This document shows, piece by piece, positions 43,048 through 64,000 of a DNA stretch of 64,000 nt (the stretch's first letter is position 1; every line of letters starts with the position of its first letter). This DNA is from a bacterium. GTDB lineage: Bacteria; Patescibacteriota; Minisyncoccia; Phycocordibacterales; JAKAEA01. The stretch lies in assembly GCA_021785065.1 (NCBI GenBank), contig JAJYGQ010000003.1, positions 2,470-66,469 of the forward strand, written 5' to 3'. A program made the translations under genes and the position numbers. The notes under the pieces were generated by a model that was given only the letters and a program-made list of their open reading frames with translations, was not told the DNA's origin and did no database searches.

Positions 43048-43857
43048 AGCTCCTACCTGAATATGTTGATCAAAAAATTCCACTGCCGCTCGTAAAGGCC
43101 CTTAACAACGGCTTTTATGTCCGCGGCAACGCGGATTTTTTGTTTTCCGAACGATTGTTGCTTGAAAAATACATTCCGTCGCGGCACGACTTTCTAGCAT
43201 CGGCAACGATGTTAGAGGGGTCTTTATAGTGTCGTAGACGGGCAGGTAAAACAATACTGTTATTGAGAATCTTTGATTCCAGATAACAGAGTATATTAAT
43301 TGTGGTTCTTACATTTCCTGACGGGAATGTAAGGGCATATGGTGGATGCCTTGGCTTCAAAAGGCGATGAAGGACGTAGCATAACTGCGATAAGCTTCGG
43401 GGAGGTGTCGAGCAACCGTCAATCCGAAGATTTCCGAATGAGGAAACTCCCGCGTTTTAACGCGGACGTTTGCGCTTGACGCAAACGAGTATACCCAGGG
43501 AAGTAAAACATTTCAGTACCTGGAGGAATAGAGACCAATCGCGCAAGCGAATGGAATTTCCTAAGTAGCGGCGAGCGAAAAGGAATGAGCCCAAACCCGA
43601 TTCCACCTTTGCTGTTTGACGAGAGTCGAATAGCGGAGGTGCGATCGGGGGTTGTAAGGCGGTAACGTCACTTTTATAGTGAGAAGAGTTACAAAATGAG
43701 ATAGTAGCGGAACGTGCTGGAAAGCGCGGCCCCAGAGGGTAATGGCCCCGTACGCGAAACTAACTCATCTCTTTTGTTACCGTTCTTGAGTACCTCGAGA
43801 CACGAATGGCTCGGGGGAATCCAGCGGAACTAACCGCTAAGGCTAAATACTTTTGAA

Positions 43858-43897
<40 letters not shown>

Positions 43898-43967
43898 CAG
43901 CCCGGTGAGGGCGGTGAAATAGACCTGAAACCATATGCCTACAAGGAGTCAGAGCGGGGTACCACTT

Positions 43968-44385
43968 TGCGTGGTATGACGTTCTCAAAATAAAATTAAG
44001 AAAATTTATCTTTCATTCATCAAAATTTTATTGCTGAATATATACACTTTTATTGTGTACTATGTTTATGTAATACAAAGTTTGATGGATACAACCTTCT
44101 ACATAGGTTATACGAATTCAATTGATCGAAGATTGAAAGAACATAACTATAGTAAGGGTCGCTTTACCAGGAAACATATTCCCTGGAAACTTGTTTACTA
44201 TGAAGCATTTAACGACAAATTTCTAGCGAAACGTCGAGAAAAGATGCTCAAAGAAACCAGTAGGGCTTGGCAAGAATTACGAAAACGTCTCGGTGTTAAT
44301 TATCGAGAAAAAAAATCGCAAACAAATCCAGCCCAAGATATATTATTTTCTAAGTAAGTTTATAATTGAGGATGTCATAGTGCCT
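43968..44385 (+). mobile_element. about 415-nt AT-rich insertion in 23S helix-25 region (IVS-like or intron) carrying a GIY-YIG ORF
   Basis: Flanked by a perfect 13-bp helix GGGGTACCACTTT / AAAGTGGTACCCC; E. coli-equivalent position about 540-550, the classic IVS site. Confidence 0.6.
44031..44357 (+). CDS. GIY-YIG family nuclease (small stand-alone type) encoded inside the 23S insertion
   Basis: YVYVIQS...FYIGYTNSIDRRLKEHN plus downstream Arg/Glu catalytic residues. Confidence 0.75.
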   Translation: MLNIYTFIVYYVYVIQSLMDTTFYIGYTNSIDRRLKEHNYSKGRFTRKHIPWKLVYYEAFNDKFLAKRREKMLKETSRAWQELRKRLGVNYREKKSQTNPAQDILFSK

Positions 44386-46099
44386 AAAGTGGTACCCCGT
44401 CATGGCGTGCCTATTGAAGAATGAGCCAACGAGTTCTAGCATCCTGCGGGCTAAAGGCGCGAGCCTGGAGCCGCAGGGAAACCGAGTGTGAATAGCGCGT
44501 TTGTAGGATGCTAGAGACCCGAAGCCAGAGCGATCTACCCATGTGCAGGGTGAATGGTGCCGAAAGGCACCAGGAGGCCCGAACCGATAAGCCGTTCAAC
44601 ACTTTCGGATGACATGTGGGTCGAAGTGAAAAGCTAATCGAGCCTGGTAATAGCTGGTTCTCTCCGAAATAGCTTTTGGGTTAGCGTCGAATGTTCCCAG
44701 GGGGGGTAGAGCACTGGAAGGTCTCGACAGGGCGAAAGCTCGCGAGACCTATCAAACTCCGAATACTCTTGGTTAAAAGTTCGGCAGTTAGACTGTGGGG
44801 GCTAAGCTCCATTGGTCAAAAGGGAAACAGCCCAGATCTCCAGTTAAGGTCCCTAAATTTATGCTAAGTGCACTTAAGGTGGTAGAAATTCTCTAACAAT
44901 GAGGAGGTTGGCTTAGAAGCAGCCATCCTTTAAAGAAAGCGTAACAGCTCACTCATCGAGAGTTTCCGCGCCGAAGATAATCGGGGCTAAGCATAGTACC
45001 GAAACTGAGGACATTATTTTTCTTCGGAAAAATAGCGTGGTAGGAGAGTTTTCGTGTTGCGATGAAGGCGAAGGGGTGACCCACGCTGGAGCGTCACGAA
45101 GTAAGAATGTTGGCACAAGTAACCGCAATCAGTGTGAAAACCACTGACGCCGAAAGATCAAGGTTTCCTTGGCAATGACAATCAGCCAAGGGTTAGTCGG
45201 TCCTAAGGGGATGGCGAACGCCGCACCCGATGGATACATGGTTAATATTCCATGACTTTTGTGTTAGGCGATGAGAGGACGGAGTGCAGTATCCCGAGCA
45301 CCTTATTGGATTGGTGTTCGTGTCGTGAGAGTGGCGTGTAGGAAAATCCGCACGCGGCCGTAAGGCACATTCAAGCGAAGCGAAGCTGTTGAGGGCGACC
45401 TCGACCAATTCGGGAAAGCGCGCTTCCAAGAAAAGTCTCTAAGCTTACTAACACAGAAACCGTACCGCAAACCGACACAGGTGATCAGCTCGAGTAGAGC
45501 AAGGCGAACGAATGAGAAGTCCCCAAGGAACTCGGCAAAAAAGCGGCCGTAACTTCGGAATAAGGCCTGCCTATCGCAAGATAGGCCGCAGCTAAAGTAT
45601 GCTTGGCAACTGTTTACCAAAAACACAGCTCCCTGCGAACTCGAAAGAGGATGTATAGGGGGTGACACTTGACCAATGCCAGAAGGTCAACTATCGGCGG
45701 TGCGATTATATCAAGCTGACTGGTACAAGCCCTGGTGAATGTCGGTCGTAACTATAACGATCCTAAGGTAGCGAAATTCCTTGTCAGGTAAGTTCTGACG
45801 CGCACGAATAGTGTCATGACTGAGCAACTGTCTCGGGGACCCGTTCGGTGAAAATACAATACCGGTGAAGATGCCGGTTACCTGCAGCTAGACGAAAAGA
45901 CCCCGGAAGCTTTACTGCAACTTGGTATTGAGCGTACGTTGTTGATGCGTAGCATAGGTGGGAGAGGTTGAGGGCATGATCTCGGTTGTGCCGGACTCGT
46001 CAGTGAAATACCACTCTTCATAGGTGTACGTTCTAACCCGCGCGGCAAAAACGCGCGGAAACAGTACTAGGCGGGCAGTTTTAGTGGGGCGCTATCCTC

Positions 46100-47059
46100 A
46101 ACTTTGGGCGCCTCAGATTTGGTAAATGGTTCAAACGACCCTCCACCAAGTCAAATTATAAAATCAGGGGGACTTTAGTCCGTAAGGGCTATCGAAAAGT
46201 TAGCTATATGCTGGAACATCCGAGTATCTTTATGTACTCGCTCAAGTTTTTTGAGCAGTGAAAATCGTAAAGTGCGGACAATCAGCAGGAAATGCTCCTA
46301 TTCTAATATTTTTATTCAGCATAGAAGCAAATCCTCAGAGACTACACGCTAACCTCCGCGAAAGCGGATGATGATATAGTCCGATCTTTGTGGCGACACA
46401 AAGCTTACTACATATAGTAAGACCATTAATGAACACTAAGGAAATTCGGGAGTACAAAAACACTCTCAAACTTACTGACATTCAAAAATCTATTCTCGTC
46501 GGAACATTGTTGGGCGATGGACATTTAGAGACGCAAGATAACGGTAAAACGTATCGTCTCAAAATTGAACATCAGTTAGCCCAGCAAGACTACACGGAAT
46601 GGCTTCACAGCCACTTCAAAGAGTGGGTTAGAAATGGAATGTATAGAAAAGTAAAATCACAAGGTAAAGAATATGTCGGATTTACCACATATTCGCACGG
46701 CGCCTTCAGATTTTACGCTCAGCAATTTTACACTGAGAAAAAGAAACATATTCCCAGAATGATCAGTAAATTGCTAAATCCATTAGTTGTTGCGATCTGG
46801 TTTATGGATGATGGTTCGTGGAAATCAGAAAAACACGAAACCTTCATAATACATACGCTCGGATTCACAAAAGAAGATCTTACGTTGATACAAGATTCGT
46901 TTAGAAAATTGTTCAATATAGAAACTTCACTTCATCGACAAAAAGAAAGATATTGGAGGTTGTATATACGATCAAGTTCCGCAAAAGAATTTGAAAAACT
47001 AATACAACCTTACACATCACTCGTTGATTCTATGAAGAAAAAGATGGGTAACAATAAGC
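46100..47059 (+). mobile_element. group I intron in 23S rRNA (domain V, before CTAAAGAGTAACGGAGG) encoding a LAGLIDADG endonuclease
   Basis: Exon sequence resumes exactly at CTAAAGAGTAACGGAGGAG; intron contains AGAGACTACACG (P7/J8-7-like); ORF stop codon lies in the downstream exon. Confidence 0.7.
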
Positions 47060-47070
47060 CTAAAGAGTAA
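46390..47070 (+). CDS. double-motif LAGLIDADG homing endonuclease
   Basis: ILVGTLLGDGHL and VVAIWFMDDGS motifs about 100 aa apart. Confidence 0.85.
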   Translation: MATQSLLHIVRPLMNTKEIREYKNTLKLTDIQKSILVGTLLGDGHLETQDNGKTYRLKIEHQLAQQDYTEWLHSHFKEWVRNGMYRKVKSQGKEYVGFTTYSHGAFRFYAQQFYTEKKKHIPRMISKLLNPLVVAIWFMDDGSWKSEKHETFIIHTLGFTKEDLTLIQDSFRKLFNIETSLHRQKERYWRLYIRSSSAKEFEKLIQPYTSLVDSMKKKMGNNKPKE

Positions 47071-47392
47071 CGGAGGAGTCTATTAAGGTCGGCTAGGCGC
47101 GAATGGAAACCGTGCCGATAGGGCATTGCCACAAGCCGGCTTGACTGCAAGAGGTAAGTCTCGAGCAGGTGCGAAAGCAGAGCAAAGTGAACCGACCATC
47201 CGCATTAGATGCGGTGGAAGATTATCTGACAAAAGCTACTCCGGGGATAACAGGCTGGTACTGCCTAAGCGTCCATAGCGACGGCAGTGTTCGGCACCTC
47301 GATGTCGGCTCAAGATATCCTCCTGGTGGAGAAGCTAGGAAGGGTTTGGCTGTTCGCCAATTAAAATCTTACGCGAGCTGGGTTCAGACCGT

Positions 47393-47714
47393 TCAGCGCT
47401 CAAATCGGAATTTTGGAATTTTCTGAAATTTTTGACATTGAGCATTGAACCGTCTGAATCCCGAGGTTTAGTTTCAGTTCCACAACTATCTGTAACTTGT
47501 TCACGGCGGTCCCGTCGAGTAATCGGCGGTGACACAGTCAACTTATATCGGTGAAGCCCATATCGTGGGAACACGAGTGCTGGTGACACCTAGGGAATTT
47601 TGTAAATTTTTACAAATGCCCGTAGAGACTACACGTTGACTATCTTTCTCGGAGTTTATAGACCGAGTGAGATAAAAATATAGTCCATTGCACGGAGTGA
47701 TCCGTGGAAACAAG
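47393..47714 (+). mobile_element. ORF-less group I intron in 23S at the L2593-equivalent site (between GACCGT and CGTGAGACAG)
   Basis: Exon context GCGAGCTGGGTTCAGACCGT | ... | CGTGAGACAGGTTGGTC matches the I-CreI/L2593 homing site; contains AGAGACTACACG core-like element. Confidence 0.65.
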
Positions 47715-47856
47715 CGTGAGACAGGTTGGTCTCCTATCTGCTGCAGGCGTTGATTCTTGAAGAGATTTGACTCTAGTACGAGAGGACCGAGTTGAACTGA
47801 CCTCTGGTGTGGCAGCTCTGGCGCCAGCTGGACCGCTGCGTAGCTATGTCGGGAAC

Positions 47857-47889
<33 letters not shown>

Positions 47890-48072
47890 GACTCTAAGAT
47901 TAGGAATCGTTAAGACCCGTGGGAGATGACCACGTTGATAGGCACCAGGTGTACGCACAGTAATGTGTTGAGCCGAGGTGTACTAATTGGTCGATCTTGT
48001 CAGGAAATGTACGAAGCACAAAATATACTCTGTTACCTGGAATTACAAAGAAATTAAAACATTGAATGTTGT

Positions 48073-48186
48073 GTTCTGGTGGTTCGTCGCGGAGGTCACA
48101 CCTGATCTCATTCCGAACTCAGAAGTTAAGCTCCGTTGAGGCGATGGTACCGTCTATGGATGGGAGAGTAGCTCGCCGCCGGAACA
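48073..48186 (+). rRNA. rrf: 5S ribosomal RNA
   Basis: CCTGATCTCATTCCGAACTCAGAAGTTAAGC and GGGAGAGTAGCTCGCCGCC blocks. Confidence 0.9.
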
Positions 48187-54679: not shown

Positions 54680-54957
54680 GTCTCCTACTCTCTATAGGGG
54701 AGTTGGTTCTTTGAAACTTGAAATACTTGAGATGGGTGGAGCCGGTAAAAACGGCTGCATCCAGCAAGTACCCAAATTATTCTTACAAAAATAATTCCAA
54801 ATAAAATAAGTCAGTTTTATTCGAGCAATCAAACTCTACGAATCTAAATTATTGTTAGGCATAAGAACATATTAAAGCGATAGTTTTCACTAGCGTCTTT
54901 TATTTTGTTCCGTTTGACTCGTCAAGAATCTTATTCGATTCTTCGCGAGGATAATTT

Positions 54958-56555
<1,598 letters not shown>

Positions 56556-56783
56556 TTCAAGGTGAATTTCGTCAATCATCACTTGATGATTAGACTGACG
56601 GAGTCGATATTGTGGATCTCGTACGAGTCCATAATGGAACGCGAATTCCTAAAGCGCTGACCGCAGGGAAAGACCGCAAATAAACGGAACAAAATAAAGG
56701 ACGTCGCTTCTTTATTCGGAAAAATCGCCTTAATAGGGCGGTTTTTCTTTTATTAGGTCATATTTTTAGGGTACAGAAAAGTA

Positions 56784-56811
56784 TTGACAAATATTTTATA
56801 TATGCTATTAT
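56784..56811 (+). promoter_or_regulatory. sigma70-like promoter (TTGACA-16-TATTAT) for the lytic transglycosylase gene
   Basis: Hexamers read directly about 80 nt upstream of ATG 56893. Confidence 0.5.
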
Positions 56812-56892
56812 ACACCATGGCGCATACGGGATAGAGAGACAACGAACTTATTGTTTTGTTTTGTTGTTTTTCTTTTTTAGTGGGGTATTCTT

Positions 56893-57345
56893 ATGCGTCA
56901 GTTCTTTCTCATTTCGGGGATGGTGTTTCTCATTTCTCATGCAGCTGCTTTTGGTAGCTACAGTAGGAATCGATGGGAGATCATCCACAGGCTTATTCCT
57001 GCTTTGATACAAGTGGAATCGAGCGGGAATAATTGGAAGGTTGGAGACAAAAAACGCTTCTATAAGGCGTATGGTTGTCTCCAAATAAGGGAGCTGATGT
57101 GTATCGACGTTGACAAACGTTGGCACACACATTACAGGGCCTCTGATTGCTTAGGCAATCGGAAGCTCTCGATTCTCATCTGCCTGCGGTACTACCGTTT
57201 GTACGATACCGCCCGGGTGGTCGGTCACCGACCAACTCTTGAGGACTTGGCCCGCATGTGGAATGGCGGACCGTACGGTTTCAAAAAACGGAGTACTGTA
57301 GGCTACTGGAGGAAGGTCCGCAAAGTCCTTCACTCTCAGGGATGA
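56893..57345 (+). CDS. small secreted lysozyme-like/lytic transglycosylase (SLT-domain) protein
   Basis: Signal peptide; IQVESSGNNW...AYGCLQIRE matches the SLT catalytic Glu-Ser and GLMQ(I) motifs. Confidence 0.6.
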   Translation: MRQFFLISGMVFLISHAAAFGSYSRNRWEIIHRLIPALIQVESSGNNWKVGDKKRFYKAYGCLQIRELMCIDVDKRWHTHYRASDCLGNRKLSILICLRYYRLYDTARVVGHRPTLEDLARMWNGGPYGFKKRSTVGYWRKVRKVLHSQG

Positions 57346-57358
57346 GTTCTTGATATAG

Positions 57359-57392
57359 GCCGTGACTAGACCACACTAGTCACGGCTTTTTT
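57359..57392 (+). terminator. rho-independent terminator
   Basis: GCCGTGACTAG-accaca-CTAGTCACGGC followed by TTTTTT. Confidence 0.8.
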
Positions 57393-57458
57393 CTTGGTTG
57401 GTTTTTGAAAATCTTTTGCCAAGTGGCGTTTTTTCTGCTATATTTCTCCAGCGTAGAT

Positions 57459-57532
57459 GGGCGTATAGCTCAGGTGGTTAGAGCGCGTCACTGATAATGA
57501 CGAGGTCCCACGTTCGAGTCGTGGTACGCCCA
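57459..57532 (+). tRNA. tRNA-Ile (anticodon GAT)
   Basis: GGGCGTATAGCTCAGGTGGTTAGAGCGCGTCACTGATAATGACGAGGTCCCACGTTCGAGTCGTGGTACGCCCA; cloverleaf with anticodon loop cTGATAa. Confidence 0.9.
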
Positions 57533-58987
57533 CATTCCTCGGAAATCGATGTTTTTAGGCGCAGTGGCGAGTACTTGATAGACGCTTTTAAATTGAGCTG
57601 AAGCCACCGTTTGGTTTTTGATAGAAGCGTTCGAGAGTACTTTTCCGAGCATATTTCGCTTTTCTTCCTCGGTGTAGTTCAAATACGTTTCCGCGGCCTT
57701 GTTGCCCTCTAAAAGAACTTCTTTAATCTGTTCGAGAGTAAAAGGCGACACACCACCCCTAGCTTGGATTTCGGCGATTTGCTTCTTGATAATAACCCGC
57801 TTGTTTTCAATCTCCTGAAGCTTGATTTTGTAGACTTCTTCCCGGATTAATTGAGAACTGTAGCCATCGGCCAGAGTTAATTCTTTCTTGAGCAGATCGT
57901 CCAACTCCGCAGTCAGAGTTCCCGTTGAATTTTCAACATACGTGATTTTGCCTTTATTTTCTTCCTTATACATATCATAGGAGAATTCGATCAATTCTTC
58001 TCTGAATTTTAATTTGAGAAAAAGGTTGGATAGAAGAGCGTGAACATCATCGGATTTCAGATACTTTTTGTGTTCTTCGCAGTTACCCCTGCCATTGGTG
58101 CAGTAGTAATATTGGTGGCCCCGTTGGGTGTCCACGGTTAACGCGCAGCCGCAGGAGGCGCATTTCAGGAATCCCTGAGCGGCGTAGAAGTACTTTTTCG
58201 GGCGAGGGTGATTCCGGCCGGCGAGAACGTCTTGCACGGTGTCAAACAGTTTTTGAGATATGATCGGTGTATGTTTGCCGGGGTAAATTTTGCCGTCACG
58301 AGGCATGAGGCCGGTGTAGAAGCGGTTGAGGAGCAAGCGCTGTAACTGACCTTTTTCGATTTTGTTGCCGGTTTTGGTTCGTAAACCTTCTTTGTAGAGA
58401 ATGTCGCTGGTTTGCTTCAGCGTGTGAGTGCCTGTGGCGTAGAGCTCAAATGCGCGGGTGATAAACGGAGCATACTTTTTGTCCACGACGACGGTTTTGG
58501 TAGTCTTGTCGTTAAGATATCCCAGAGGCGCTTGATTGGGCCATTCACCACGTTCCAGTTTTGCTCGGTTGCCTCGTTTGACGTTGACGCTAAGGTCACG
58601 AATGTATTGATTGGCCATGGCCTGCTCAATGCTCATGACGATGACGTTGTCGTTAGGGTAGTAGCTTTTATCAAACGTCCGAATGCACTTAATCTGATTG
58701 TTTTGGAGGAGCCATTGAATCTGACCGCCATCCACTGGATTTCTCGTTAAACGGTCAATTTTCCAGCAGAGAATGGCATCGGCTTTGCCGGCGGTGATCA
58801 TTTTGATCATGTCATTGAAGATGGGCCGGCCGGGCTCTTTAGCCGATTTGCTTTCCTTGAGAATGGCAATTACGTCTAAGCCATTAGCTTTGACGATTTT
58901 CTGGAGCTCGTCTTCTTGCGATGCCAGCGACAAAACCTGTTTATCTTCAGTATCAGTGGATTTTCTACAATAGAGAATAAATTTCAT
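57488..58987 (-). CDS. large serine recombinase (integrase), C-terminus encoded on the complement of tRNA-Ile
   Basis: Catalytic YCRKSTDTEDKQ...SLASQ...DRLTRN resolvase domain, recombinase domain, zinc ribbon CASCGC...YYYC; last 15 codons and TGA stop overlap the tRNA anticodon and T arms. Confidence 0.85.
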   Translation of the reverse strand: MKFILYCRKSTDTEDKQVLSLASQEDELQKIVKANGLDVIAILKESKSAKEPGRPIFNDMIKMITAGKADAILCWKIDRLTRNPVDGGQIQWLLQNNQIKCIRTFDKSYYPNDNVIVMSIEQAMANQYIRDLSVNVKRGNRAKLERGEWPNQAPLGYLNDKTTKTVVVDKKYAPFITRAFELYATGTHTLKQTSDILYKEGLRTKTGNKIEKGQLQRLLLNRFYTGLMPRDGKIYPGKHTPIISQKLFDTVQDVLAGRNHPRPKKYFYAAQGFLKCASCGCALTVDTQRGHQYYYCTNGRGNCEEHKKYLKSDDVHALLSNLFLKLKFREELIEFSYDMYKEENKGKITYVENSTGTLTAELDDLLKKELTLADGYSSQLIREEVYKIKLQEIENKRVIIKKQIAEIQARGGVSPFTLEQIKEVLLEGNKAAETYLNYTEEEKRNMLGKVLSNASIKNQTVASAQFKSVYQVLATAPKNIDFRGMWAYHDSNVGPRHYQ

Positions 58988-59023
58988 AGGAGAATTTTAG
59001 AACAATATGGGAAAATGACTAGT

Positions 59024-59782
59024 TCAAATTTTGTAAATTCTGTGTCGTCCTGTGCCCAGGCGCATAGTGTCGTAGGATTTATCTATTTCCGGCTCACCGG
59101 CACCCAATTCTTGAAGCGCAGCATCTACAGCGGTGGCACTGATACCACCAACTATTTCCGGTCGTAGCAGATTTCTTGAGCAGGTATACGATTTTTGACC
59201 CATTAAGCGGTAATCGGTAAAAGATTTAGTCATATACTTAGCTAGATAGGAAGATAATCTTGGGCCACCATCACTTTGGATTACGTCAATGAAGCCGTGT
59301 CCCCAGAGTCCTTTAACCAATCGGGTATGTCGCTCTGTTTTAGCGAGGGTCTCGGGAAGACCCCAGAGCATAGCATGGAAATGAATGGCTCCACGGTCTT
59401 GAAATTCTGGGACTGCGATGTACCGAAATTGTTTGCCGAATTGATGGCGGAGAGTCTGGATAAAAGCATGGAAATCTTTGTATCCATGACTGAGAGACGT
59501 TTGGTTGTCTTGGTAGGTAAGAGTAAGCAGTAGAGGGTGGTCAACTCCTCCAAGGTTAGCAGAAACAAGCCGTCTAAAAGCCATTGCAGCGCGCCGTGCG
59601 TTATCTTGGCGTTTGCCCTCGTATTCGTGTCGCTGTAATGGATTTTCTCCACCAGGAGCCACACCCACGCCGCCATTTTTAACCGAAAAGCGTCTCTGTC
59701 TTGGGGGTCTATCTGGAAGGTCTCGTGAGTATTCATATGTTTCAATTGTGTGAGCGTATTTAATAATTTTGTTGTATCCCAT
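59024..59782 (-). CDS. rep: rolling-circle replication initiator, Rep_1 (pC194/pUB110-like) HUH endonuclease family
   Basis: Motif I LLLTLTY, motif II HFHAMLW (HUH), motif III YLAKYMTK (catalytic Tyr). Confidence 0.75.
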   Translation of the reverse strand: MGYNKIIKYAHTIETYEYSRDLPDRPPRQRRFSVKNGGVGVAPGGENPLQRHEYEGKRQDNARRAAMAFRRLVSANLGGVDHPLLLTLTYQDNQTSLSHGYKDFHAFIQTLRHQFGKQFRYIAVPEFQDRGAIHFHAMLWGLPETLAKTERHTRLVKGLWGHGFIDVIQSDGGPRLSSYLAKYMTKSFTDYRLMGQKSYTCSRNLLRPEIVGGISATAVDAALQELGAGEPEIDKSYDTMRLGTGRHRIYKI

Positions 59783-59814
59783 TTCTTTTTCTCTAGTTAC
59801 TTATGTGAGGTACT

Positions 59815-59844
59815 TATCAAGTCAGACAGCGGGGTCGTCCCCGC
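59815..59844 (-). promoter_or_regulatory. candidate double-strand origin: CTTGATA nick heptamer (minus strand) adjacent to GC-rich hairpins, 33 nt upstream of rep
   Basis: Minus-strand CTTGATA at 59815..59821 equals the pC194-family nick core; hairpin GCGGGG-tcgt-CCCCGC at 59829..59844 and a second GC palindrome to about 59870. Confidence 0.45.
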
Positions 59845-60013
59845 CGCCACTAAAGTGGCGCGGCGGCGACTGCCCGCTCTCGGCAATAACAGCAATTAAT
59901 CCAGCCAATGATTCTAAATATTCTTGGGCAGTCTCATCCGAAAGCTCCAAGCCGTAATACTTTTTGAAGTAGGCTTTGCACCTCTCTATGAGCAGTTGAT
60001 TTACAGTCCGCAT
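59822..60013 (-). CDS. small hypothetical protein (63 aa) upstream of rep; 3' end overlaps the GC hairpins
   Basis: ORF only; could instead be non-coding origin/leader. Confidence 0.25.
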   Translation of the reverse strand: MRTVNQLLIERCKAYFKKYYGLELSDETAQEYLESLAGLIAVIAESGQSPPRHFSGGGDDPAV

Positions 60014-60107
60014 TTCGCTAGAATAAACGGACTGTTTGGCAGAATTTCTCGCTCTCGGTACCCAACTGGCTAACTGAAGCCAAAAATTTCATAGAATTTT
60101 TAATAAA

Positions 60108-61052
60108 ATGCCCACTATTAAGCGGGAGTATGGAAAACTCAAAGCAAAACCAACCTTTTTCAAGAAAGGAACTGTCGTCTATTCAAATTCCGGCCACGCA
60201 TTACACCTTTCCAATGGCTACTATCGTTGCAGTCTAAATTGCAGAAAAGAGCTTGGCAGCAAAGAAAGCCAAGTTGAACAGGAGCGTCTGCACCGAGATT
60301 TTTCTCGAATAGCTAAACGTTTCGCGATTGGTGAGGACGATGTCAACGCTGTCTTGCGCCAATTGATGCAGAGGTATTTTGTGAATACGTTGTTTGATAT
60401 TGACGAAAAGACCGATAGCAAAGGAAGAATAATTAACGCCAATATCGTCAAAATGAAGGCTGATATTAAACGGGGTGAATTTGTCAAAAGAGACGTGACT
60501 GATTCTTTTGATCGATTCATGGAAATCAGTAAAGACGAATATCCATTTATCATGTTCTGTTACGCTTTTGGTGTTATTGGATCATTGTCGGCATTGCATG
60601 GGGAGCGTGAGATTGGGCAAGTCTTGGCCGCGATTACCAAACACGTCTATATATCAGATATTGGAATTGTAGAGAAAATTGAATTTGAACCATGGGGCTG
60701 GTACATCTTGAATTTCATGGAAAAACAGGTGCCGAACTATTTATGGAGTCTTAAAAAACATGGGGTAGATATCACCAATGACCACACCGATCAATTTTTG
60801 AAAAAAGATTTTTCGGCGGCAATCGCGTATTTTGAATCCGAAGGTTTTGAAGAAGCACTCCACAATGATATGACCCAAGTTCTCTACAAACTTTTTTCGT
60901 TGATGAGAGATTCAATACGAGTACTTTTAAAAGGCGATACAGCATCAATGCAAAAAGCCTACACGGATTTGGTTGAACGATTTAAGAAAGATCCAGTATT
61001 CAAAATGGCAATGATGTTGCCGGCATTAGGAAGTGGAAAGATCAAACTTTAA
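60108..61052 (+). CDS. hypothetical protein (314 aa) of the element
   Basis: Clean ORF, no recognisable motif. Confidence 0.45.
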   Translation: MPTIKREYGKLKAKPTFFKKGTVVYSNSGHALHLSNGYYRCSLNCRKELGSKESQVEQERLHRDFSRIAKRFAIGEDDVNAVLRQLMQRYFVNTLFDIDEKTDSKGRIINANIVKMKADIKRGEFVKRDVTDSFDRFMEISKDEYPFIMFCYAFGVIGSLSALHGEREIGQVLAAITKHVYISDIGIVEKIEFEPWGWYILNFMEKQVPNYLWSLKKHGVDITNDHTDQFLKKDFSAAIAYFESEGFEEALHNDMTQVLYKLFSLMRDSIRVLLKGDTASMQKAYTDLVERFKKDPVFKMAMMLPALGSGKIKL

Positions 61053-61053
61053 C

Positions 61054-61429
61054 AGAAATACCGTTCCGGCCGCTTAAGCCGGGCAGGTTCTCACACCGCC
61101 CGTGGGGTTTGCGGCTTCTTATTTTCGGGCACAATGGCGCGTCCTTGGCGCAGCATCGTAGTGAAGCACAAACGCTTACACCATAGAGCTTTCTAGCGCT
61201 ATGGAGATTTCCTCTCTTTTGGGAAAGGAAATAGTAGAAGCCAGAAAGTCCTATGGGCTGGCTTCACTACCATACTGCGCCGGTCGCGACAAACATTAAA
61301 GGAAATAGTAGAAGCCAGAAAGTCCTATGGGCTGGCTTCACTACCATACTGCGCCGGTCGCGACAAACATTAGTGGCTTGAAGCCCGAAACCTCCACGGG
61401 CTTACGAGAGCGGCCGGAACCGTATTTCT
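61054..61429. repeat. 376-bp structured non-coding block: 20-bp terminal inverted repeats (1 mismatch) enclosing a 74-bp direct repeat x2, each unit with an 8-bp-stem hairpin
   Basis: Left arm GAAATACCGTTCCGGCCGC (61055..61073) versus right arm GCGGCCGGAACCGTATTTC (61410..61428); repeat units 61225..61298 and 61299..61372; hairpin GAAGCCAG...CTGGCTTC. Confidence 0.8.
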
Positions 61430-61466
61430 TGAGAGAATATTTTGTGATATTCTATTAAAAATAAAC

Positions 61467-62009
61467 ATGGATTTTTATATCATTTTTGCCGGTATTATTG
61501 AACAGGGTTTTGCCAATAAACTTGTTGTAGCAATAAATAGGGCAGCCACTCTTAAAGTAAGAAAAATATTTATTTTTTTCTCATCTTTAGGCGGGAACAT
61601 TCAAGAAGGATTCACTATCGCGTCAGTTATCCAAAATTCCACAATTCCAATATCAATCCACGCTAATAACAATATTGATTCAATCGCTAATGTAATATAC
61701 TTATCAGCAAAAGAAAGGACCGCGGAATCTTACGCAAAATTTTATCTTCATGGCGCAACAGGTCCTCAAGTTGCATACGATGAAAAAGGTTTGAAAGAAC
61801 AACTTTTGGCAGTTAAAACAGAAAATACACGCATAGCACAGTTTGTATCTGAAAATTCGAATCTAAATTTCAAAAAAGTCCAAGCCATGATGCGGGCAGG
61901 AACAACGATGACTACCCAACAGGCGTTGCAGTATGGGATAGTTAAAGAAATCATCCACAAAGAAGTACCGATTGACGCGGTCAAGGAAGAGATTTTAATT
62001 GTTAATTAA
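61467..62009 (+). CDS. ClpP-like (S14 family) serine protease, short form (phage prohead-protease-like)
   Basis: ClpP-like blocks IFFSSLGGNIQEGFTIASVI (compare INSPGGVITAGMSIYDTM), Ser in DSIAN, His in YLHGATG. Confidence 0.55.
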   Translation: MDFYIIFAGIIEQGFANKLVVAINRAATLKVRKIFIFFSSLGGNIQEGFTIASVIQNSTIPISIHANNNIDSIANVIYLSAKERTAESYAKFYLHGATGPQVAYDEKGLKEQLLAVKTENTRIAQFVSENSNLNFKKVQAMMRAGTTMTTQQALQYGIVKEIIHKEVPIDAVKEEILIVN

Positions 62010-62011
62010 TT

Positions 62012-62245
62012 ATGAAAAATACAACAATGGAATATGTAAAAAAAATAGTTGAGGAATCATTAAAAAATATGGGTTGTACTGACGTGGCATTCCCTGACCC
62101 TAAAGAAGATCTTGTTATAGCCGTTTTTAACTGCAAAGAAATTACAAGTTTTGTTACTGAAATACCAGGATGGACACATTCGGGTATTCATTTAGATCCA
62201 ACTCACGAACATCAATACAAAATTGACTTTAAAAGATTAAGCTAA
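62012..62245 (+). CDS. hypothetical protein (77 aa)
   Basis: ORF immediately after the ClpP-like gene stop (ATG 3 nt downstream); no motif. Confidence 0.35.
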   Translation: MKNTTMEYVKKIVEESLKNMGCTDVAFPDPKEDLVIAVFNCKEITSFVTEIPGWTHSGIHLDPTHEHQYKIDFKRLS

Positions 62246-62337
62246 TATTGTTTAGGTATATTATTCGCAAAATGGGAATAATGAAAATGACGCAACAAAT
62301 TAAAAATTAAATCAGATTAATCTTCTAAAAACTTTTT

Positions 62338-62766
62338 ATGGAAAACGATCGAGAAATTATATATGGTATGGAAGGTAAAAAAGTGAAGGGATTGCCTCTG
62401 GATGACTTGGAAAAATTAATGCGCGAATGGCAGAAGAAACTTCTCATGGACAACTGGAAGCTCGATTTAAAGATTGTCGATTTTAAAAGGAAAAATAATT
62501 ACCGTCAAAGTGGCGATTTCATAGCCGATCCTGACAAGAAAAACGCTTCTATCTTGATGACTTGGGATCCGTGGCGCGGCGATGAAGAGTACACGCTTGT
62601 TCACGAAATGTTGCACGTCTTGGTATATGACTATGATAAATACAGCGAGGGTTTAATTCTTGGTCATTATAAAAAATTCGAAGGTGAACACGATGTGTAC
62701 ATGGATAAATTAGAAAATCTAGTTCATCATTTGACCAGGATGTTGCTCGGGCGGTCAGACAGGTAG
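62338..62766 (+). CDS. putative zinc metallopeptidase (HExxH; ImmA/IrrE-like size)
   Basis: TLVHEMLHVL HExxH motif in a 142-aa protein. Confidence 0.45.
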   Translation: MENDREIIYGMEGKKVKGLPLDDLEKLMREWQKKLLMDNWKLDLKIVDFKRKNNYRQSGDFIADPDKKNASILMTWDPWRGDEEYTLVHEMLHVLVYDYDKYSEGLILGHYKKFEGEHDVYMDKLENLVHHLTRMLLGRSDR

Positions 62767-62867
62767 TTTCTTAATTTTGTTAATCAAAAATAAAAATAAC
62801 AAATAAAAAAGCCCAGGATTCATGACGAGTCCGGGGCTTTGGCGCTGATAGCTTATACCTACCGGCA

Positions 62868-62948
62868 TTAGCTACCTCGACAGCATGGCGAGAACGCTGA
62901 TCGGGGCGTGCTGGCTTTTGTTGCCTGCGCCGTTTTGATGCGCTTCAT
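62868..62948 (-). CDS. candidate 26-aa peptide MKRIKTAQATKASTPRSAFSPCCRGS (possible RiPP precursor) downstream of the rSAM/SPASM gene
   Basis: Perfect SD AAAGGAGG 5 nt before ATG on the minus strand; C-terminal Cys-Cys; below the ORF-track length cutoff. Confidence 0.3.
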   Translation of the reverse strand: MKRIKTAQATKASTPRSAFSPCCRGS

Positions 62949-63008
62949 GGCTACCTCCTTTCTACGCTGATAAGCGCAAATCAATTGTAACGAACTAATG
63001 AGACTATG

Positions 63009-64000
63009 TCAATGGCTGCTAGCCGAACGAATGTTTTCTTCGTTTAAGACGAGAACCTCCAAAAATTCCGGCAAGTCGTGTTTCCAATCCAAGCAATAGT
63101 CGCAACCAGGCTTGTGATAGCGCTTCATGTTGCATCCGCCCATACATATTGGGAGCATGGGGCAGTCACGACATTCCGAGAATTGGAGAGGGTCTTTTTT
63201 GACCCACAAATCATTCGGCACAGTGTCGAGGTGGATTGTCCCATCGCTGCCCAAACGGCCAACTGACCCAGTCTCAAACATCTGACCGCAACGATACAGA
63301 TTGCCGTTAAGGTCGGTGATGAAGCGATTGGGATATTCTCCAACACAAAACCCAAGTGCTCTCATCTTTTCAGTCGGAGGAAGAACTACCCAACCGTCTT
63401 TCGCCGCCCTCTTGTAGATTGCTAACGCTCTGTGAGCAAAATCATATCCTGACAGGCAGTGTGATTCGCAAGGATTAGCTGGCGAAGACACTACTGCCTG
63501 AACATTGACCTCGATCTTGTTCTTGAGACCATGCTCAGCAAGTAGTGTATAGAGTTCTGGAATCTGATCCACATTTCTGGTTGTCGTGTTTACCCGGATT
63601 GAGACCTTGAGTCCCGAGGCCACGGCGTTCTTGATGTTTTTTAATATGGTCCAGAAGGTCGGGCCGCCTCCTTTAAGTGGCCGGCATGCGTCATGAATAT
63701 CTGGAGGGCCATCAAGGGTGATGGTGAGAACAGATAAGGGTGTTGTAGCAAGGTAGGTCACCACCTCTTCACTCAGGTGATAACCATTAGTAGTGATGGA
63801 ATGACAATATTCCACCTCCGACTGTTTTGCTAAGATCGTGAATTTGTCATTCATGGCGCACAGAGCGTCGAATGAAAGAAGCGGCTCACCACCAAACCAG
63901 TCCACCTCGACCCTTTTTGCCTTCTCGCAAATCTTGCGAAACATTGCCAGAACCTTATCCGACTCTTGCGGCGATAAATACTCGTTTCTGTGCTCCTCAA
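63009..64000 (-). CDS. radical SAM enzyme with C-terminal SPASM domain (peptide-modifying or anSME-like), N-terminus beyond window
   Basis: WFGGEPLL radical-SAM block; SPASM Cys cluster CRDCPMLPICMGGC plus CDYC; reading frame stays open upstream of the annotated Met to the window edge. Confidence 0.8.
   Translation of the reverse strand, partial: EEHRNEYLSPQESDKVLAMFRKICEKAKRVEVDWFGGEPLLSFDALCAMNDKFTILAKQSEVEYCHSITTNGYHLSEEVVTYLATTPLSVLTITLDGPPDIHDACRPLKGGGPTFWTILKNIKNAVASGLKVSIRVNTTTRNVDQIPELYTLLAEHGLKNKIEVNVQAVVSSPANPCESHCLSGYDFAHRALAIYKRAAKDGWVVLPPTEKMRALGFCVGEYPNRFITDLNGNLYRCGQMFETGSVGRLGSDGTIHLDTVPNDLWVKKDPLQFSECRDCPMLPICMGGCNMKRYHKPGCDYCLDWKHDLPEFLEVLVLNEENIRSASSH

Follow-up and report, generated by a model that had tools for sequence, protein, structure and literature searches.

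We identified a three-gene cassette at the end of a 64,000-nucleotide (nt) stretch of patescibacterial contig JAJYGQ010000003.1 (this whole stretch is called the window below), made up of a radical S-adenosylmethionine (SAM)/SPASM maturase, a peptide of 26 amino acids (aa) that we call the CCRG peptide, and a 142-aa HExxH mini-zincin. The carriers of the cassette are mainly members of the Candidate Phyla Radiation (CPR)/Patescibacteria, which are ultra-small bacteria. The cassette is probably of the RiPP type (a peptide made on ribosomes and modified after its translation), comprising a maturase, its precursor substrate and a convergently encoded zincin. Systems that combine a radical SAM/SPASM maturase with an adjacent short Cys-containing peptide are already known; the CCRG family itself is new. 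No curated NCBIfam or Pfam family spans the enzyme clade, the CCRG peptide or the mini-zincin, and none of the three was found in the searchable literature, in which the sole match for "CCRG" is an unrelated cyanobacterial name ("CCRG-2") and nothing relevant was found on TIGR04463/Clo7bot or on ranthipeptides in CPR. The members of the cassette in the window are:

63009-64000, minus strand: 330 codons from the 3′ end of the gene for a predicted 440-aa radical SAM/SPASM peptide maturase (from its translation, PF04055, TIGR04085 and the overlapping contig L084)
62868-62948, minus strand: open reading frame (ORF) of the putative 26-aa precursor MKRIKTAQATKASTPRSAFSPCCRGS (CCRG peptide), stop codon included (from the ORF list, homologues and codon selection)
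62338-62766, plus strand: 142-aa HExxH mini-zincin, a predicted zinc metallopeptidase, convergent with the peptide gene; the third conserved member of the cassette

The comparison drew on 165 genomic and metagenomic loci surrounding homologous enzymes. The conservation counts given below cover the loci with sufficient flanking DNA, and the identity threshold was 39% or more identity of the enzyme to P0002, the reference homologue.

The radical SAM/SPASM enzyme

The enzyme ORF is open to the window end, and its 5′ part, which codes among other things for the putative N-terminal recognition domain, lies beyond base 64000. A first-pass annotation of the window, made from the sequence alone, had recognized here a radical SAM protein with a GGEPLL block and a SPASM Cys cluster, and had expected the CxxxCxxC motif in the missing N-terminus. 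All three are present: the window holds WFGGEPLLSF and, toward the C-terminus, CRDCPMLPICMGGC, while contig L084, which is 99.975% identical to window positions 55927-64000 and reaches about 5.9 kb further, yields the whole 440-aa enzyme with CNFKCFYC (CxxxCxxC) at residue 103, encoded outside the window, 3-10 codons past base 64000. The SPASM region has the full seven-Cys motif (C-x13-G-x4-C at residue 329, CxxCx5Cx3C at residue 387, which is the second of the two stretches found in the window, then one more Cys), and the motif Cys are invariant across 38 homologues. The enzyme is a member of the radical SAM superfamily and of its SPASM subfamily, scoring 59.7 bits against PF04055 (Radical_SAM; cutoff 29.5) and 40.4 bits against the SPASM domain model TIGR04085 (cutoff 27).

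The top NCBIfam matches are all maturases of Cys-rich peptides (Clo7bot, TIGR04463, CefB, geopeptide, FlmE/OhkG, and PapB), and full-length homologues of the enzyme reach best scores of 160-260 bits against cutoffs of 340-600. The maxima among these homologues are 262 bits for Clo7bot (TIGR04334; cutoff 600), 247 for TIGR04463 (525), 222 for CefB (NF038107; 600), 195 for geopeptide (TIGR04280; 400), and 107 for SCIFF (TIGR03974; 425). Since all curated maturase models score below their cutoffs, the enzyme clade lies outside every curated family. TIGR04334, TIGR04463, NF038107, and TIGR04280, which are predicted maturases of short Cys-rich peptides, align end to end with the CCRG enzyme over about 430 residues, but their cutoffs are 400-600 bits and the scores 160-260, which places the enzyme outside all four. 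To our knowledge, the Clo7bot, TIGR04463, CefB, and geopeptide maturase families have no established chemistry, and the searchable literature holds no mention of them.

In the AlphaFold2 model of P0002 (predicted local distance difference test, pLDDT, of 93), the N-terminal domain consists of three strands (residues 7-12, 15-20, and 25-29) and three helices (31-43, 51-60, and 72-83), all with pLDDT above 94. This three-strand, three-helix arrangement is consistent with a domain of the leader-recognizing kind, and the full-length match to CteB agrees with it; the domain, which resembles a RiPP recognition element, is seen in the model only, Pfam PqqD giving no match to the enzyme. CteB is the nearest solved structure both by sequence (5wgg, E-value 3e-29) and by fold (template modeling, TM, score of 0.71-0.75 over the full length), and the second nearest is that of the anaerobic sulfatase-maturating enzyme (anSME). 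Together with the family matches, this supports placing the enzyme, by sequence and predicted fold, as a relative of the Cys-rich-peptide maturases, nearest to the thioether-forming CteB. The CCRG-associated enzymes were not resolved as a single clade in a rough neighbor-joining tree that included distant members, and we make no claim of monophyly.

Conservation of the CCRG peptide

The peptide ORF, 81 nt long, is the only ORF of the CC-terminal kind within the 64-kb window. It was the first-pass annotation that drew attention to a tiny ORF 60 nt beyond the enzyme on the same strand and proposed a RiPP maturase-precursor pair; the spacing is indeed exactly 60 nt (62949-63008), and the proposal is upheld by the conservation of the ORF. 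A CCRG ORF is present, on the same strand, at every locus that has an enzyme at or above the identity threshold and sufficient downstream DNA, with both Cys invariant among the homologues. These ORFs encode 25-28 aa, have near their C-terminus CCRG, or in rare cases CCRN or CCRC, with one or two residues after it, and either abut or slightly overlap the stop codon of the enzyme gene or begin at most about 85 nt beyond it. The 31 distinct CPR peptide sequences have the consensus MkRirkA-x7-P-x5-6-CCRG-x, in which MKRI(K/R)xA is conserved at the N-terminus and CCRG is invariant at the C-terminus, one or two variable residues coming after it; they are strongly cationic, with on average 7.2 Lys plus Arg and 0.45 Asp plus Glu.

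Such ORFs are far in excess of chance: on the two strands of 975 kb of related loci we counted 50 ORFs of the form CCRG-x(0-2)-stop where base composition predicts about 1.3, and 49 of the 50 adjoin a radical SAM gene, on its strand. Among fourteen 26-aa versions, the entropy at codon positions 1, 2, and 3 is 0.91, 0.81, and 1.55, the mean proportion of synonymous differences (pS) is 0.82 against 0.36 for nonsynonymous ones (pN), and the Cys, Arg, and Gly codons of the CCRG motif itself vary synonymously. The variation at third positions, the excess of pS over pN and the synonymous changes within CCRG indicate that the peptide is selected as a protein and not as an RNA. The small ORF is a real conserved gene, and the peptide and enzyme have the features of a RiPP precursor-maturase pair, the peptide being short, co-located with the enzyme, conserved, and under selection at the protein level.

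The peptide has no match in NCBIfam or Pfam, and a search of 5.8 billion protein clusters with a peptide profile found no called protein, so the CCRG family is invisible to current annotation; the 26-aa precursor is missing from public gene calls.

The mini-zincin

The first-pass annotation had described the pair as converging on an integrated element. The convergent gene (62338-62766, plus strand) had there been wrongly given to the mobile element: it is the conserved zincin of the cassette. Homologues of the mini-zincin adjoin the peptide gene in about 35 loci, including all CPR loci with sufficient flank, so that the three genes are strictly linked. The arrangement varies: most commonly the zincin gene is convergent with the peptide gene, as in the window; in L008, L009, L010, L105, and L111 it follows the peptide gene directly on the same strand; and in L109 it precedes the enzyme gene, the order being peptide, zincin, enzyme. 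In the predicted structure of the 142-aa protein the HExxH motif lies on a helix within a zincin fold, which identifies it as a probable zincin.

Members of the zincin family also occur without a CCRG peptide in L166, L168, and L170, near other radical SAM genes. In two of these loci (L166, 5001-7973; L170, 5001-8218) the mini-zincin gene adjoins a gene for a second HExxH-containing protein (DUF2268 in L170), followed by a gene for a 58-63 aa protein with KLCGVQGCCPTIDF and one for a different radical SAM enzyme (26% identity). They may represent another peptide-modification system that uses the same zincin family.

Distribution and variant architectures

Only about 47 enzyme clusters at 43% identity or above were found among 5.8 billion proteins, so the system is sporadic. 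The labeled close relatives belong mostly to Patescibacteria lineages (Vogelbacteria, Saccharibacteria, Berkelbacteria, and Paceibacterota), with a few metagenome-assembled genomes under other labels. CCRG peptides with the tails SV, HV, RV, or RM are found beside more distant maturases (about 29-38% identity), in loci labeled Defluviitaleaceae, Negativicutes, and other non-CPR taxa (L012, L120, L126/L128, L131, L011/L116, L017, L135, and L113); some of these have two tandem SPASM maturase genes and then the peptide gene.

The genes around the distant peptides differ from locus to locus. In the Firmicutes-type loci L126/L128 and L131, the gene right after the peptide gene encodes an M32-family carboxypeptidase, which is also an HExxH enzyme. 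L012 has an ABC-F ATPase gene right behind the peptide gene, and L126 has one upstream of the cassette; L011 and L120 have an ABC-2 transporter pair nearby. In the Negativicutes loci the peptide gene is upstream of the enzyme gene, and defense-type genes (GmrSD/HNH or SIR2-STAND) come after; in L113 the precursor is duplicated in tandem and in frame, and a gene for a PCMT-type methyltransferase is present. A comparison of the mini-zincin with M32 carboxypeptidases by hhalign was not significant, which makes the mini-zincin and M32 partners analogous rather than orthologous. The presence of two unrelated zincins in one position, together with the one or two variable residues past the invariant CCRG, suggests that the peptide may be trimmed at its C-terminus.

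Fifteen related loci (L007, L008, L009, L010, L087, L088, L096, L098, L104, L105, L106, L108, L111, L115, and L151) have, directly upstream of the enzyme gene and on its strand, a gene for a Cys-rich protein of about 165 aa with the motif GPC.AL...GC....RP..C.T..C and no Pfam match. No such gene lies upstream of the enzyme in the clade of the window. The protein may be an optional fourth member of the cassette.

Comparison with known systems

The closest parallels are CteB/SCIFF (thermocellin) and PapB, which share with the CCRG system an N-terminal recognition domain (putative in the CCRG enzyme), a radical SAM core and a SPASM domain with two auxiliary clusters (predicted here), as well as a short Cys-containing peptide encoded beside the enzyme. 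The differences are considerable: CteB is only about 20% identical to the CCRG enzyme, and CCRG enzymes score 62-107 bits with the SCIFF maturase model (cutoff 425) and 78-132 bits with the PapB model (cutoff 340). The CCRG peptide has two adjacent Cys at its C-terminal end, in place of six Cys in about 45 residues or CxxxD/N repeats; in addition, it is encoded downstream of the enzyme, and the system has a mini-zincin partner.

The mycofactocin (MftA/MftC/MftE) and pyrroloquinoline quinone (PQQ; PqqA/PqqE) systems are alike in that the precursor is very short and carries an invariant motif at its C-terminus or close to it, a radical SAM/SPASM enzyme recognizes the precursor, and a peptidase processes it. 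However, their motifs are GVY or E-x3-Y and not CCRG, their peptidase is of the creatininase family and not a zincin, and the CCRG system has neither a separate recognition protein of the MftB or PqqD type nor downstream tailoring genes. The MftC and PqqE models were absent both from the best 25 of the 60 NCBIfam families matched by the window fragment and from the matches of full-length homologues at E-values of 1e-20 or below. By enzyme models, precursor motif and accessory genes, the cassette does not appear to be a pathway of the mycofactocin/PQQ type; a functional analogy is possible.

The mini-zincin resembles the minigluzincins (selecase, proabylysin, and projannalysin) and M78/SprT-like minimal zincins: each is a soluble domain of some 110-140 residues in which a conserved Glu lies downstream of an HExxH helix, and distant members of the mini-zincin family give weak matches to the M78 and SprT-like Pfam models. 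It differs from them in that there is no significant sequence similarity, Foldseek E-values are only 0.04-0.1, and the mini-zincin has no Pfam family.

Proposed mechanism and alternative explanations

We infer that the peptide is the substrate of the enzyme, and that the likely course is thioether cross-linking of the two Cys followed by trimming by the zincin. The N-terminal recognition domain would bind the conserved N-terminal segment of the peptide; the enzyme, with its SAM-cleaving 4Fe-4S cluster and two auxiliary clusters, would make a 5′-deoxyadenosyl radical, which takes a hydrogen off a carbon close by in the backbone or a side chain; and this carbon would be joined to the thiolate of one or both Cys, bound at an auxiliary cluster, giving CteB-like thioether links of the sactionine or ranthionine type. 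Such sacti-/ranthipeptide-like chemistry is suggested by the homology of the enzyme to thioether synthases (CteB and the ranthipeptide families). As only CCRG is invariant, the acceptor would lie within or next to the motif, or else the identity of the acceptor residue would be tolerated. The zincin would most plausibly trim the variable residue(s) after CCRG, or alternatively remove the leader, and could be a new type of RiPP-processing protease.

Several points weigh against this interpretation. The evidence consists of sequence and predicted structure, from which the chemistry cannot be read; the enzyme is so far under all curated maturase cutoffs that the transfer of function is loose; and beyond CCRG no acceptor residue is conserved in the peptides. 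As the zincins of L166, L168, and L170 have no CCRG peptide, the zincin family is not exclusive to the CCRG system, and a carboxypeptidase role rests on analogy, given that no significant homology links the zincin to the M32 enzymes. Finally, there is no exporter or immunity gene in the cassette of the window organism, which keeps a cofactor-like or intracellular role among the rivals.

CPR/Patescibacteria have tiny genomes and are generally thought to be poor in secondary metabolism, and a self-contained, conserved peptide-modification cassette would offer a tractable handle on their products. We suggest, quite tentatively, that the cassette is a minimal RiPP system typical of this lineage, whose product would be a small, highly cationic thioether-bridged peptide or an excised modified Cys-Cys-Arg-Gly fragment, acting in the relationship between episymbiont and host or as a peptide-derived metabolite. 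If true, this would establish a new RiPP class, with its cross-link chemistry at two vicinal Cys, and also a new family of mini-zincins that process RiPPs. The vicinal Cys-Cys-Arg-Gly is an unexplored substrate motif for SPASM enzymes, and three small genes are near ideal for heterologous reconstitution.

It is also conceivable, though we consider it unlikely, that the system makes a cofactor or small molecule in the manner of mycofactocin or PQQ: CCRG would be modified and the fragment excised by the zincin, so that the fragment and not the 26-mer is the functional product. The invariance of the C-terminal CCRG alone, with the remaining core varying freely, would fit such a pathway, as would a peptide as short as PqqA and MftA, the strict linkage of a peptidase to the peptide, the M32 carboxypeptidases after the peptide in distant versions, and the lack of export and immunity functions in the CPR cassette. 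However, the further tailoring or redox-partner genes of the mft and pqq operons are absent, the conserved N-terminal MKRIRKA and the charge of about +7 would be superfluous except as a leader, the rarity and sporadic occurrence of the system suit an accessory product better, and the nearest relatives of the enzyme are cross-linking maturases. Less probable still is that the peptide serves as an accessory partner of the enzyme or the zincin (a Cys-Cys ligand for a metal or cluster, an inhibitor, or a regulator) and not as a substrate. An adjacent Cys pair is able to bind metals, and linkage to a metalloenzyme and a metalloprotease also fits a partner role; but CteB-like SPASM enzymes with an N-terminal recognition domain characteristically modify an adjacent short peptide, and distant loci pair the same type of peptide with two tandem maturases, which is typical of substrates. 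We know of no precedent for a 26-aa accessory subunit in this enzyme family.

There is very little to recommend the remaining explanation, in which the enzyme is an anSME or some other SPASM enzyme that modifies proteins, with no connection to the small ORF, which would be a chance ORF, a Cys-sensing regulatory leader peptide, or a small RNA. anSME is the second-closest solved structure, and the pair of Cys codons with a terminator after it looks superficially like an attenuator. However, at a target length of about 360-380 the anSME structures are the shorter ones, with query TM scores of about 0.58-0.60, below those of CteB; about 85 residues at the N-terminus of the enzyme form an additional domain of three strands and three helices, which anSME is not known to have. 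The first-pass annotation had named grouping with anSME next to a sulfatase gene as an outcome that would count against a peptide maturase, and on both scores the result favors the maturase: the anSME model TIGR03942 gives 57-100 bits (lowest 56.8) against a cutoff of 349, with the best family matches all falling on Cys-rich-peptide maturases, and sulfatase genes are absent both from the roughly 5.5 kb upstream of the enzyme gene and from the element on the opposite side of the cassette, the flanking genes with a family match all being housekeeping genes. The peptide, moreover, has no C-x-P-x-R motif, and its ORF shows conservation at the amino-acid level with synonymous codon variation. Family score, ORF conservation and synonymous variation thus contradict both the anSME and the chance-ORF explanations. 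We rejected an attenuation leader in view of the selection at the amino-acid level and because nothing lies downstream on that strand in the commonest arrangement, and an analogy to CaaX-like prenylation because a prenyltransferase is lacking and the length of the tail does not fit.

Expression signals around the peptide gene

Three candidate expression signals surround the peptide gene in the window:

62984-63012, minus strand: sigma-70-like promoter match, TTGACA-17-TACAAT, 11 of 12 positions (consensus scan only)
62954-62962, minus strand: Shine-Dalgarno sequence GAAAGGAGG, 5 nt before the ATG at 62948 (read from the sequence)
62801-62840, minus strand: predicted intrinsic terminator, a GC-rich hairpin with a U-run, some 27 nt past the stop codon of the peptide ORF (RNA fold)

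The strong Shine-Dalgarno sequence reported at first pass is present at the distance given then, and a GGAGG-type site is found just upstream of the start in about 35 of 39 homologous peptide ORFs. The promoter match lies ahead of the peptide ORF, across the stop codon of the enzyme gene, and could give the precursor its own transcription at a higher level than that of the enzyme; four promoter-type matches occur in 1.8 kb where 2.8 are expected, so the evidence for a promoter is weak. The terminator sits between the two convergent genes for peptide and zincin. The RNA fold of 62785-62875 (minus strand) has a free energy of -28.1 kcal/mol (z = -3.6), none of 200 shuffled sequences being as stable, and an equivalent hairpin with a T-run follows the peptide gene in locus L001.

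Neighboring DNA in the window

Beyond the enzyme gene, contig L084 encodes a 97-aa protein of no assigned family, pyruvate kinase, tRNA-Leu, RadC, and a Mur ligase family protein. On the other side of the cassette lies a candidate integrated element (57459-62245), with a GC content of 0.43 against 0.46 for the window, for which we found no convincing att-type repeats at the boundaries. Since the HExxH gene and the radical SAM gene are in synteny at other loci, the right end of the element must lie before 62338 (roughly 62245-62338). Besides a 314-aa protein of no assigned family and an ORF of 72-77 aa, the element encodes:

57488-58987, minus strand: serine recombinase, the 3′ end of its gene overlapping tRNA-Ile (57459-57533)
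59024-59782: Rep-like protein
61467-62009: ClpP-family protease

In a non-coding gap of the element (61054-61429), 74 nt are perfectly duplicated in tandem (61224-61297 and 61298-61371). An inverted partner of 21 nt lies at 61147-61167, and farther out is an inverted repeat, also of 21 nt (61054-61074/61409-61429); these repeats may be an origin or a structured RNA.

Further upstream, the window has a 23S rRNA match at 43319-48184, which spans 4686 nt against a model of 2925 positions and holds a group I intron (46133-46403); the excess length and the intron make further insertions likely. The 23S-5S genes precede the 16S-tRNA-Ile genes (54956-57533) by about 6.8 kb, an unlinked or unusual rRNA order that is typical of CPR.

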